DNA of 64,000 nt from an uncultured Rhizobacter sp. (lineage in GTDB: Bacteria; Pseudomonadota; Gammaproteobacteria; Burkholderiales; Burkholderiaceae_C): positions 206,353 through 270,352 of the forward strand of contig CAXTSS010000003.1 of assembly GCA_964247075.1 (NCBI GenBank), read 5' to 3'. Position 1 is the first letter of the stretch. Every line of letters starts with the position of its first letter. Under the pieces are notes generated by a model. The model did not search any database, was not told where the DNA came from, and was given only the letters and a program-made list of their open reading frames with translations. The translations under genes and the position numbers were made by a program. This document shows positions 57,706-59,093 of this stretch, piece by piece.

Positions 57706-58032
57706 ATGCACGCCCACAACCGACGTGTCTTCATGCTGCACGCGATCGCCGGAACGACCGCGCTGGCCGCGCACGGCAGCGCGGGCGCGCAGGACGCGAC
57801 CGATCCCGTCAAGGAGACCGACCCCTATCCCAAGTCGATGGGCTTTCGCCTGAACACCGCCAATGTGGATCAGGCCAAGTTTCCGCGCCACGAGGTGTCG
57901 CAGAAGTGCAGCGAATGCCAGCTCTTCAGCGGCAAGCCGGGTCAACCCACCGGCACCTGCTCGTTCTTCAAGCGCGTGGTGCCGATCGATGGCTGGTGCC
58001 GCAACTTCAAGCCGCGCAAGGCTGCCGCGTGA
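57706..58032 (+). CDS. High-potential iron-sulfur protein (HiPIP)
   Basis: RBS GGAG, NRRVFM Tat signal, CSECQLF...GTCSFF...GWC four-Cys pattern. Confidence 0.9.
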   Translation: MHAHNRRVFMLHAIAGTTALAAHGSAGAQDATDPVKETDPYPKSMGFRLNTANVDQAKFPRHEVSQKCSECQLFSGKPGQPTGTCSFFKRVVPIDGWCRNFKPRKAAA

Positions 58033-59093
58033 AGCAGCGGGTTCGGGCGCCGGGTCGGTGGGCCGCTGCGCTGCTCGCGGTCGGGCTGCTGCTCGCGGGT
58101 TGTGAGCGCCCGGCCTCCGACCAGCGCGGCCCGCGCGGGACGTCTCAGATCCAGCTGCGCAAGCCGGCGGCCGTGGCCGCGCTGGCCGAGATAAACCGCA
58201 TTCCTCCCGCGGAGGAAGCCGCCGACCCGGAGGCGCCGCCGGCGAGCGAGGTGTTCGTCAATGTGAAGGTGCTCAACGACCTGAGCGCCACCGAGTTCTC
58301 GCGCGTGATGCAGGCCTTCTCCACCTGGGTGGCGCCGGAGCAGGGCTGCGACTACTGCCACAACCCGGACAAGCTGGAGTCCGACGAGAAGTACCCGAAG
58401 GTGGTGGCGCGCCGCATGATCCAGATGACCCGCCACATCAACAGCGACTGGAAGTCGCACGTGGCCGAGACCGGCGTGACCTGCTGGACCTGCCACCGTG
58501 GCCAGGCCGTGCCCAGCGGGGACTGGTTCAACGGATCCGATGCGCCGGTGGCCCCGTCGAGCTTCTCGCGCAGCCGCGATGGCAAGAACGCGCCGGCGCC
58601 AGTCGCAGGCGGGTCGGCGCTGCCGAGCGATCCCCTGTCGCAGTACCTGACGACGGGGGGCTCGGAGATCCGGGTCCAGTCGGGGGCGGCCCTGCGTTCG
58701 CGCGACGTGCCGCCCGTCTCGGTCAAGAACGCCGAGTGGACGTACGCGCTCATGATGTACATGTCGGGCTCGCTCGGCGTCAACTGCACCTACTGCCACA
58801 ACACCCGGGCCTTGGCGAGCTGGCAGGAGAGCTCACCGCAGCGCGTGACCGCCTGGCACGGCATTCGGATGGTGCGCGACCTCAACACCGCCTTCCTCAC
58901 ACCGCTCGAGCCGCTGTTCCCGGCGAACCGGCTGGGGCCGCACGGTGATGGTCCCAAGGTCGGCTGTGCGACCTGCCACAAGGGCACCTTCAAGCCGCTG
59001 AACGGCGTCAGTCCGCTGGTCGACTACCTGGCGCTCGCCGGCGTGGGCAAGGTGCCGCCTGGCGTGCCGTCGGAGCCGCCGGCCAAGCGCTGA
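58029..59093 (+). CDS. pufC: Tetraheme photosynthetic reaction-centre cytochrome c subunit homologue (lipoprotein)
   Basis: Lipobox LAGC-ERP, QRGPRGT, four heme motifs CDYCH/CWTCH/CTYCH/CATCH, RVTAWHGIRMVRDLN, RLGPHGD. Confidence 0.92.
   Translation: MKQRVRAPGRWAAALLAVGLLLAGCERPASDQRGPRGTSQIQLRKPAAVAALAEINRIPPAEEAADPEAPPASEVFVNVKVLNDLSATEFSRVMQAFSTWVAPEQGCDYCHNPDKLESDEKYPKVVARRMIQMTRHINSDWKSHVAETGVTCWTCHRGQAVPSGDWFNGSDAPVAPSSFSRSRDGKNAPAPVAGGSALPSDPLSQYLTTGGSEIRVQSGAALRSRDVPPVSVKNAEWTYALMMYMSGSLGVNCTYCHNTRALASWQESSPQRVTAWHGIRMVRDLNTAFLTPLEPLFPANRLGPHGDGPKVGCATCHKGTFKPLNGVSPLVDYLALAGVGKVPPGVPSEPPAKR

Follow-up and report, generated by a model that had tools for sequence, protein, structure and literature searches.

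The 64-kb window, as we call the whole stretch of DNA analysed here, contains a seven-gene operon that runs metallophosphoesterase, SoxA/TsdA-like cytochrome, Lcl_C/DUF1566 protein, SoxY, SoxZ, HiPIP and, last, a PufC-like gene, with a CbbR-like LysR regulator divergent from it. The same HiPIP-PufC module is found on over 100 contigs that are independent of one another and come from different studies. The operon is widespread and apparently undescribed, and in the searchable literature we found no paper on a PufC paralogue that goes together with HiPIP and Sox genes; a Thioalkalivibrio paper and a Roseateles paper had no bearing on the module. PufC has so far been treated as a fixed reaction centre (RC) subunit from the puf operon. 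This picture is altered by a second, conserved PufC which is accompanied by a HiPIP of its own and by genes for sulfur or iron oxidation. Our favoured reading, held tentatively and at somewhat less than even weight, is twofold: the gene, complete in its sequence, would encode a functional lipid-anchored tetrahaem cytochrome of RC PufC descent, from a separate paralogue clade dedicated to lithotrophic electron input, and this protein and its HiPIP would act as a donor-specific second PufC system feeding sulfur-derived electrons to an RC encoded elsewhere. If true, this would reveal how phototrophs connect external electron donors to the RC, and photolithotrophy in uncultured Burkholderiales of fresh water would become accessible through concrete genes. 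Furthermore, the automatic name "photosynthetic reaction center cytochrome PufC" can mislead the inference of phototrophy from metagenome-assembled genomes (MAGs).

The operon and its PufC-like gene

The regulator and the seven genes are as follows.

53338-54330, minus strand: divergent LysR-family regulator, CbbR-like (PF00126 and PF03466 matches)
54750-55760, plus strand: TAT-exported metallophosphoesterase-fold protein, operon gene 1 (336 aa; PF00149, 58.8 bits)
55775-56284, plus strand: SoxA/TsdA-type monohaem cytochrome c (169 aa; PF21342, 44.5 bits)
56268-56843, plus strand: secreted Lcl_C/DUF1566-domain protein (PF07603, 94.8 bits; start uncertain)
56855-57322, plus strand: SoxY sulfur carrier with TAT signal (PF13501, 98 bits)
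57347-57658, plus strand: SoxZ (PF08770, 97 bits; TIGR04490, 97.5 bits, cut-off 76)
57706-58032, plus strand: HiPIP with TAT signal and four cluster Cys (PF01355, 52.4 bits, cut-off 22)
58029-59093, plus strand: PufC-family tetrahaem cytochrome, a lipoprotein of the module-linked paralogue clade (354 aa, GTG start)

The PufC-like protein matches the PufC profiles over its full length and above their curated cut-offs, with 408 bits for PF02276 (cut-off 22.4; profile positions 6-309 of 310) and 420 bits for the NCBIfam PufC equivalog NF040706 (cut-off 150). An earlier note on this DNA had claimed four CxxCH motifs, distal haem ligands at particular spacings and an intact lipobox, and each of these is present. 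The motifs lie at residues 107, 152, 253 and 313; M94 is 13 residues upstream of the Cys of haem 1, M130 and H144 are 22 and 8 upstream of that of haem 2, and M242 is 11 upstream of that of haem 3. The membrane anchor is given by the lipobox LAGC with its invariant Cys25, and the nine Cys of the protein divide into eight for haem and one for the lipid anchor. Four CxxCH motifs never arose by chance in 200,000 shuffles of the protein. Across 119 homologues the haem, ligand and lipobox residues are invariant (17 of 17). The dN/dS of the gene is 0.16-0.25, and both results agree with the earlier description of an intact, non-decaying PufC. The protein also aligns over its full length to RC-bound cytochromes (Rhodopila 7XXF_C, E=5e-97). 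PDB fold matches at E<=1e-3 to its low-confidence AF2 model (pLDDT 62.7) were RC cytochrome subunits in 22 of 22 cases (TM about 0.6), which together with the 7XXF_C sequence match points to an RC-cytochrome-subunit fold. Translational coupling to HiPIP was likewise rightly recognised: in the string GTGA the PufC GTG overlaps the HiPIP TGA by 4 nt. HiPIP, and not pufM as in the puf operon, is the gene directly upstream, although to name it as the upstream gene is only part of the picture, as HiPIP is gene six of seven and the operon also holds SoxY and SoxZ.

All seven genes are under purifying selection, strongest in the metallophosphoesterase (dN/dS 0.08). This protein has the twin-arginine signal DRNRRQML and all five dimetal motifs, with GNHD replaced by an invariant GEHD; its homologues (1121 at E<=1e-5) are 335-340 aa long, and the PDB folds closest to its AF2 model (pLDDT 69.6) are GpdQ, Rv0805 and purple acid phosphatases. 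Homology to SoxB was considered and rejected, given no SoxB profile match, no SoxB PDB sequence match and only rank 37 for SoxB in the fold search; the protein is at most a possible functional analogue of SoxB. The monohaem cytochrome scores only 47.7 bits against the SoxA equivalog TIGR04484 (cut-off 110). Its lone CxxCH and its NWC motif are invariant in 29 orthologues, and the NWC Cys aligns with the haem-ligand-Cys region of SoxA (1H31) and TsdA (4WQ7), which suggests His/Cys haem ligation. A TTG at 56268, taken as the start of the Lcl_C protein, yields a signal peptide. SoxY is borderline against TIGR04488 (128.3 bits, cut-off 125) and ends in GGCA, a short arm compared with the usual GGCGG; the carrier Cys is conserved, and orthologues end in GGC[G/A/V/S] (24/27), GGCGA (2/27) or SGCS (1/27). 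HiPIP is identified by its profile, by its four Cys (C68, C71, C85 and C98) and by its twin-arginine export signal NRRVFM. Together with SoxYZ in some modules and without it in others, the metallophosphoesterase, the Lcl_C protein and the monohaem SoxA-like cytochrome form an as yet uncharacterised group of periplasmic enzymes, which may oxidise sulfur by a new route.

The top NCBIfam match of the divergent regulator is CbbR, at 222 bits and under the cut-off of 450, and a LysR-family regulator is kept beside the module in Burkholderiales loci. A promoter scan gave a sigma-70-like match at 54365-54337, and the scan for promoters and terminators within the operon returned nothing informative. 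Downstream, the convergent hydrolase of the earlier note is an alpha/beta hydrolase (59095-59949, minus strand; PF12146). A Pfam scan of the open reading frames (ORFs) in all but a few stretches of the window found ordinary housekeeping, transport and regulatory genes such as gyrA, aroA-cmk, rpsA, thyA and mutL; one tmRNA also lies within the window. As the earlier note had said of the neighbourhood, RC genes are missing, with pufL, pufM, puhA and bch absent among the ORFs scanned. A CrtC-domain protein (34389-35636) was rejected as a photosynthesis gene on two grounds: no such gene was found near it, and a gene for a MacB-type permease is about 4 kb away.

Spread, descent and hosts of the module

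The module occurs in Burkholderiales MAGs and in the purple sulfur bacteria Thiocapsa and Thiohalocapsa, between varied flanking genes in different loci. The label "orphan" in the earlier note is misleading for a gene that has a fixed place at the end of a conserved operon and is part of a monophyletic paralogue clade. Similarly, the note's own caveat of an assembly error parting pufC from pufLM is excluded, because the HiPIP-PufC arrangement recurs on more than 100 independent contigs. In the genome scan, loci of at least 56% identity all carry the module or sit on a short or atypical contig and none has pufLM adjacent, while all 31 pufLM-linked copies have at most 55% identity. The metagenome scan gave 80 loci, of which 59 are type A, one is type B, six have HiPIP only and 14 are truncated; none is linked to pufLM. 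Lcl_C is present in every complete type-A locus, and SoxY/Z in 55 of 85 module loci. In the type-B sister module the sulfur genes are swapped for a dihaem c4-type cytochrome and a Cyc2-like porin-cytochrome (assigned as Cyc2 by architecture alone), and HiPIP and the PufC-like protein are retained. HiPIP lies directly 5' of the PufC-like gene in both types, the order of donor enzymes, HiPIP and PufC-like protein is the same, and type-B PufC relatives have a transmembrane helix in place of the lipobox. A further, Rhodoferax-like arrangement places the PufC-like gene after the ccm operon or crtIB, apart from HiPIP, and FccB can follow it. Most module loci, including that of the window and those of its closest relatives, lie amid housekeeping genes and outside photosynthesis clusters. 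A related metagenome contig from sequencing run X1 holds the whole operon colinearly. A protein search of the plasmid collection returned seven records with no HiPIP- or metallophosphoesterase-linked copy, six of them annotated as pufC.

In a phylogeny against puf-operon copies, a check that the earlier note had suggested, the module-linked PufCs are monophyletic (86% bootstrap) and their sister group (90%) is the pufLMC-linked PufC of Acetobacteraceae. This Acetobacteraceae PufC itself has a Cyc2-like gene after it. Of 73 canonical-invariant positions, 65 are kept at 90% or more in the module clade, and the remaining eight have the same majority residue. The loop QxGxRG after the lipidated Cys is likewise at least 90% conserved, and solved structures show it on the periplasmic surface of the RC (PMC9640540). 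Residues conserved specifically in the clade, such as SDEKY after haem 1 and CWTCH replacing CYTCH, gather round haems 1 and 2, the donor-docking end. PufC-OmpA fusions were considered as an argument against RC binding and dismissed, as a canonical-type PufC beside crt and puh genes has a like extension.

The identifiable hosts of the module, Thiocapsa and Thiohalocapsa, are all phototrophs, and in Thiocapsa the module coexists with canonical pufLMC. In T. bogorovii BBS, pufLMC is LT988_08865-75 and a second RC-cytochrome gene, LT988_21295, stands two locus tags after SoxY/SoxZ (LT988_21280/85); the genome paper, alone in the literature searched, lists this second gene, and does so without comment (PMC10892978). 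Three metagenomic contigs (L089, L091 and L150) have the sulfur module within a photosynthesis gene cluster or next to one. In L091 and L089 it has canonical PufC and crtD on one side and crtB, crtI, puhE, acsF, puhA and bchL on the other, and in L150 the order is crtI, crtB, PufC-like gene, FccB and then the module. The PufC-like protein of L091 shares 72% identity with its counterpart in a "Rhizobacter sp." MAG. The nearest relatives are MAGs labelled Rhizobacter or Methylibium, genera that are not classically phototrophic; one module-bearing MAG, GCA_025350965.1, is 85% identical. The sequencing runs with near-identical DNA (X1-X4) are metagenomes that carry many pufLM variants, so pufLM reads there are not attributable to the window's organism, and no RNA run or expression data was found among them.

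Possible paths of the electrons

The earlier note had offered two alternatives, a photosynthetic part reused in a non-photosynthetic chain or a swappable second PufC with an RC encoded elsewhere. Neither is proven for the window's organism, and the latter is favoured because the identifiable hosts are phototrophs and three loci lie in or next to photosynthesis clusters. On this favoured reading, a periplasmic SoxA/TsdA-like His/Cys haem protein would oxidise a reduced sulfur compound with SoxYZ, the TAT-exported dimetal hydrolase and the Lcl_C protein as partners, and the electrons would pass to the operon's own HiPIP. HiPIP would then hand them on to the distal haem of the PufC-like cytochrome, just as it reduces canonical PufC. 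The cytochrome would dock on an RC encoded elsewhere, replacing the puf-operon PufC in a donor-specific manner, and would re-reduce the photo-oxidised special pair. We infer which sulfur compound is used, in what order the electrons move, the docking and the presence of an RC in the window's organism. RC binding and re-reduction of the special pair are suggested, indirectly, by the conserved canonical-invariant positions and RC-surface loop.

In the only electron path known for the PufC family, HiPIP reduces PufC and PufC the special pair, and the gene order of both module types (donor enzymes, HiPIP, PufC-like) agrees with the established HiPIP-to-PufC direction. The 22 of 22 fold matches, the invariant residues, the conservation of the module, the paralogue clade and the RC-proximal features also count for RC input. 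Sulfur chemistry is favoured by SoxY and SoxZ scoring above their cut-offs, by the invariant SoxA-like Cys and by the FccB adjoining the PufC-like gene in L150. Against this reading, no RC gene was seen among the scanned ORFs of the 64-kb window and most module loci lie among housekeeping genes. An RC has one cytochrome subunit, and module-bearing phototrophs have a canonical PufC, so that isoform exchange would be needed, for which we know of no precedent. The Rhodoferax-like PufC-like gene, which is not co-transcribed with HiPIP, fits a free-standing acceptor too. Moreover, SoxYZ is missing from 30 of the 85 modules, and the hydrolase is not SoxB-like, which makes the chemistry of the module uncertain.

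The main rival, which we consider somewhat less likely, would keep the PufC-like protein off the RC as a free-standing, membrane-anchored four-haem collector for periplasmic sulfur enzymes. It would take electrons from the SoxA-like haem, or from FccB in some lineages, and exchange them with HiPIP, which would then diffuse to an RC-bound canonical PufC or a terminal oxidase. Such a relay would suit phototrophs that already own a canonical PufC, and the SoxA-like protein, with neither SoxX nor a TsdB-type partner haem in the operon, needs an acceptor. It also fits the L150 locus, where no FccA-type cytochrome gene was detected beside FccB, the uncoupling of HiPIP from the PufC-like gene in the Rhodoferax-like arrangement and the position of most loci outside photosynthesis clusters. 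B. viridis PufC has two low-potential haems, and such haems in PufC-type cytochromes could take low-potential sulfur electrons. However, a relay would reverse or leave undefined the sole path known for the family, sits poorly with the placing of the PufC-like gene after HiPIP in both module types, and does not require for RC binding the RC-surface loop and canonical-invariant positions that are nevertheless conserved.

Overlapping with the relay is a non-photosynthetic exaptation, in which sulfur electrons would reach a cbb3- or aa3-type oxidase or another membrane complex; this is unlikely, a grading that covers the case of a host without any RC. Some bacteria are known to use HiPIP as an electron donor for terminal oxidases, no photosynthesis gene was seen among the scanned ORFs of the window, heterotroph-type genes flank related loci, and the nearest relatives come from the Rhizobacter and Methylibium MAGs. 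Yet no host was shown to be RC-free among the module carriers found, and every identifiable one is phototrophic. The position of L089, L091 and L150 in or beside photosynthesis clusters, with the 72% identity of the L091 protein to that of the "Rhizobacter sp." MAG, also speaks against it, as does the RC being the only acceptor that we know of for PufC-family cytochromes. That the gene is a relic of a lost puf operon, or was parted from pufLM by mis-assembly, would be suggested only by the absence of pufLM beside it. This is refuted by the recurrence of the arrangement on over 100 contigs that stem independently from different studies, by purifying selection on seven of seven genes with invariant cofactor-binding residues, and by the colinear contig from run X1.

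Returning to the favoured RC input, a wider and more doubtful extension is that purple and aerobic anoxygenic phototrophs have interchangeable donor-specific RC cytochromes, with a HiPIP-PufC cassette placed on different lithotrophic input modules, Sox-like for sulfur in the window and Cyc2-type for iron in relatives. Expression of the operon would then re-equip the RC with a donor-tuned cytochrome subunit, and the TAT-exported dimetal hydrolase and monohaem SoxA-like protein would belong to a new minimal thiosulfate- or sulfur-oxidising system.

Comparison with known systems

Compared with RC-bound PufC (Blastochloris viridis 1PRC chain C; Rhodopila globiformis 7XXF chain C), the PufC-like protein shows full-length homology (E=5e-97), and it reaches up to 55% identity with pufLM-linked copies. 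It shares four CxxCH motifs, three Met/His haems and one His/His haem, identical ligand spacing, the N-terminal lipobox Cys, the post-Cys loop and the Arg after haem 3 (PQR). Unlike RC-bound PufC, the window's copy does not follow pufM, belongs to its own clade, is coupled to HiPIP and sulfur-oxidation genes, and has SDEKY after haem 1 and CWTCH for CYTCH; its RC binding is putative. The module PufC coexists with canonical PufC in Thiocapsa and L091.

The operon resembles the Sox system in its carrier pair, with SoxY and SoxZ above equivalog cut-offs, in a SoxA-fold haem domain with a Cys ligand, and in a dimetal hydrolase of the metallophosphoesterase fold, the superfamily to which SoxB belongs. 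It differs in having no SoxX, SoxB or SoxCD. In place of SoxAX there is a single 169-aa haem domain under the SoxA cut-off with no SoxX match, and in place of SoxB there is a hydrolase that resembles GpdQ, Rv0805 and purple acid phosphatases. Its SoxY has a one-residue tail past the carrier Cys, and SoxYZ is absent in about one third of modules. The thiosulfate dehydrogenase TsdA of Allochromatium vinosum, which has HiPIP as acceptor, is similar in its His/Cys-type catalytic haem domain, which belongs to the same PF21342, and HiPIP is a plausible acceptor for the operon's cytochrome too. In contrast to dihaem TsdA, the operon's cytochrome has one CxxCH in 169 aa, although the Cys-ligand position is conserved; TsdA needs neither SoxYZ nor a hydrolase, whereas the operon adds a conserved metallophosphoesterase and an Lcl_C protein.

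To our knowledge, no PufC paralogue has been described in Pio or Cyc2 systems, and the window's module differs from them in having sulfur-type rather than iron-type genes. PioABC (with the HiPIP PioC) and Cyc2-Cyc1-HiPIP of Acidithiobacillus are nonetheless alike in plan, as an outer donor module leads to HiPIP and on to the RC or a high-potential chain. The sister type-B module, with its Cyc2-like porin-cytochrome, dihaem c4-type cytochrome, HiPIP and PufC-like protein, shares this plan.

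The HiPIP and PufC-like genes and their operon

The PufC-like gene in the window has a GTG start that overlaps the TGA of the HiPIP gene in GTGA, and its 354-residue product covers the entire Pfam CytoC_RC profile (408 bits) and scores 420 bits against the NCBIfam PufC equivalog, for which the cut-off is 150. The protein carries four CxxCH motifs (residues 107, 152, 253 and 313), a number not reached by chance in any of 200,000 shuffles. M94 lies 13 residues N-terminal of the haem-1 Cys, M130 and H144 lie 22 and 8 residues ahead of the haem-2 Cys, and M242 lies 11 ahead of the haem-3 Cys. 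The lipobox is LAGC with Cys25 and, of the nine cysteines in total, eight serve haem and one the lipid anchor. A low-confidence AF2 model gave 22 significant structural matches, all to reaction-centre (RC)-bound cytochromes. The earlier note had thus correctly read the motifs, ligand spacings, intact lipobox, coupling to HiPIP and flanking genes. Its description of an "orphan" pufC does not stand, as the gene is the last of an operon with SoxY, SoxZ and HiPIP that is conserved across loci. Five further same-strand genes lie upstream of HiPIP, the gaps running from -17 to 73 nt.

Genes of the operon and its neighbours (window coordinates, strand)
53338-54330, divergent from the operon: LysR regulator, CbbR-like
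54750-55760, +: metallophosphoesterase, TAT-exported
55775-56284, +: SoxA/TsdA-type monohaem cytochrome, 169 aa
about 56268-56843, +: Lcl_C/DUF1566 protein
56855-57322, +: SoxY
57347-57658, +: SoxZ
57706-58032, +: HiPIP (PF01355, 52 bits; four cluster Cys; twin-arginine signal)
58029-59093, +: PufC-like, terminal gene of the operon
downstream of PufC-like, convergent: alpha/beta hydrolase

No puf, puh or bch genes were found among the scanned ORFs elsewhere in the 64-kb window, in agreement with the earlier claim that RC genes are lacking nearby; the other ORFs are housekeeping, transport and regulatory (gyrA, pheA, tyrA, aroA-cmk, rpsA, thyA, mutL and others). A CrtC-N/lipocalin-domain protein (34389-35636) is encoded roughly 4 kb from the gene of a MacB/FtsX-type permease (39654-42182). 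Since photosynthesis genes were not found nearby, its reading as a carotenoid hydratase belonging to a photosynthesis gene cluster was rejected. The window also holds a tmRNA gene (17930-18301; Rfam RF00023, 182 bits; tag peptide ANDQTYALAA) and, at 45736-47653, an ECF-type sigma factor gene adjoining that for a 451-aa protein with a YNCE-like beta-propeller and a C-terminal cupredoxin (plastocyanin/azurin-like) domain, which may be another periplasmic redox protein.

Conservation of the operon and its sulfur genes

A scan of species-representative genomes gave 65 loci, in which every PufC at least 56% identical to that of the window was accompanied by the module or lay on a short or atypical contig, and none had pufLM beside it. 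In 31 loci pufL and pufM were upstream, all at 55% identity or less. Module hosts include Burkholderiales MAGs labelled Rhizobacter, Methylibium or Burkholderiaceae, and the purple sulfur bacteria Thiocapsa and Thiohalocapsa. Similarly, 59 of 80 JGI metagenome loci had the module and one a variant of it, six had HiPIP alone upstream on short contigs, 14 were truncated less than 800 bp upstream, and pufLM occurred in none. Independent look-ups recovered the same eight genes between unrelated flanks, and one public run contains a related contig with the entire operon, colinear. Across 119 full-length homologues, none of the 17 residues for haem, its ligands or the lipobox varies. Compared with three orthologous loci, the PufC-like gene has a dN/dS of 0.16-0.25, and the seven operon genes span 0.08-0.41. 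The gene is therefore intact, as had been proposed, and its setting is neither an assembly error that separated it from pufLM nor a relic.

SoxY and SoxZ both exceed their equivalog cut-offs, SoxY by a narrow margin, and SoxYZ was found in 55 of 85 modules. SoxY ends in GGCA (57308-57322; GGC[G/A/V/S] in 24 of 27 orthologues), so that its tail, with one residue past the carrier Cys, is shorter than the usual GGCGG swinging arm. The SoxA-like protein has a single CxxCH and an invariant NWC Cys that aligns with the haem-ligand-Cys segment of SoxA and TsdA, scoring far under the SoxA cut-off; no operon gene matched SoxX. The metallophosphoesterase is under the strongest constraint in the operon (dN/dS 0.08) and keeps five of five dimetal motifs, with GEHD instead of the canonical GNHD invariant in 33 aligned homologues (60-86% identical), which may reflect an unusual metal site or substrate. 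It is closer to GpdQ, Rv0805 and purple acid phosphatases, and a SoxB-like identity was rejected. From the features of these proteins, the module likely oxidises a reduced sulfur compound; its substrate, and what the hydrolase contributes, we only infer.

A paralogue clade within PufC and its genomic settings

In a neighbour-joining tree (60 sequences, 200 bootstraps), the module-linked proteins are monophyletic (86%) and sister to PufC from the pufLMC loci of two Acetobacteraceae MAGs (90%), and by sequence they are a paralogue clade that originated inside PufC. Clade members share on average 46% identity with canonical PufCs, against 51% among the latter. In canonical PufCs 73 positions reach 90% conservation or more; the clade does so too at 65 of them and keeps the same majority residue at the remaining eight. 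Clade-specific conserved residues are concentrated directly past the haem-1 motif (SDEKY, 118-122) and at the haem-2 motif (CWTCH, Q159, S163). Haem 1 is the farthest from the special pair and forms the docking end for soluble donors. In solved structures (PMC9640540) the loop past the lipidated Cys lies on the periplasmic face of the RC; here it is conserved as QxGxRG.

Some PufC-family proteins on other contigs have long C-terminal extensions (L020:9686-12649; L091:1-1407; L089:1-747; L098:7762-9366), several ending in an OmpA-type peptidoglycan-binding domain, among them a 988-aa ORF of a Thiocapsa MAG; that of L098 is a solitary 535-aa gene, convergent to the module and without pufLM.

Five contigs carry a four-gene sister module.

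Loci of the sister module (contig:positions)
L037:1823-5787
L070:7212-11119
L071:7339-11116
L072:3511-7363
L101

Here a dihaem c4-type lipoprotein and a protein of about 450 aa precede HiPIP and a PufC-like protein anchored by an N-terminal transmembrane helix. The 450-aa protein, which has no Pfam or NCBIfam match, combines a signal peptide with one CxxCH close to the start of the mature chain, a body rich in Gly, Tyr, Asn and Ser, and ...YLWMAF at the C-terminus, which we take to be the fused cytochrome-porin architecture of Cyc2. A homologue (29% identity, E about 4e-43 to 1e-42) directly follows pufL-pufM-pufC in the two Acetobacteraceae MAGs of the sister group (L032:11408-12808; L034:10553-11986). 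As both module types share HiPIP and PufC-like, the pair is a cassette joined to different donor modules.

Links to phototrophy were also found. The 82.8-kb metagenomic contig L091 (1-20996; 70% GC) and L089 (1-10338) have the module embedded in a photosynthesis gene cluster, in the order canonical-type PufC, crtD-like, LysR, module, crtB, crtI, puhE, acsF, puhA, bchL, with two PufC-family genes within about 10 kb; the PufC-like protein of L091 shares 72% identity with its counterpart in a "Rhizobacter sp." MAG. In Rhodoferax-like lineages the PufC-like gene is upstream of the LysR gene (L150:4275-5639; L025:586-9558), L150 reading crtI, crtB, PufC-like, FccB-type sulfide dehydrogenase flavoprotein, LysR and the module up to HiPIP, and in closely related MAGs (PufC-like 85% identical) it follows a complete ccm operon for cytochrome c maturation (L025:586-9558). 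For Thiocapsa bogorovii BBS, the genome paper (PMC10892978) gives pufLMC (LT988_08865-75) and, without comment, a second RC-cytochrome gene (LT988_21295) two locus tags past SoxY and SoxZ, so the paralogue coexists with a real PufC.

Possible roles of the PufC-like protein

Common to all readings is that the HiPIP/PufC-like pair would pass electrons released by a periplasmic set of sulfur-oxidising enzymes to the high-potential chain, which we hold with considerable confidence. Tentatively, we favour a donor-specific alternative RC cytochrome, in which electrons would run from HiPIP through the PufC-like protein to the special pair. This keeps the family's only known path and agrees with the gene order of both module types, the conserved RC-proximal features and specialised distal end, and the phototrophic hosts and cluster-embedded loci. 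The majority of module loci, including that of the window, lie amid ordinary genes, and the protein could instead be a free-standing membrane-anchored relay serving the sulfur enzymes and HiPIP, the main rival, which we consider less likely. A purely non-photosynthetic chain in the window's organism is improbable.

A full-text literature search of incomplete coverage, which leaves an earlier description possible, turned up no account of a PufC paralogue tied to HiPIP and to Sox genes, nor of the operon itself. The PufC-like protein represents a new clade within a known family; its genomic setting is new, and probably its functional one too.
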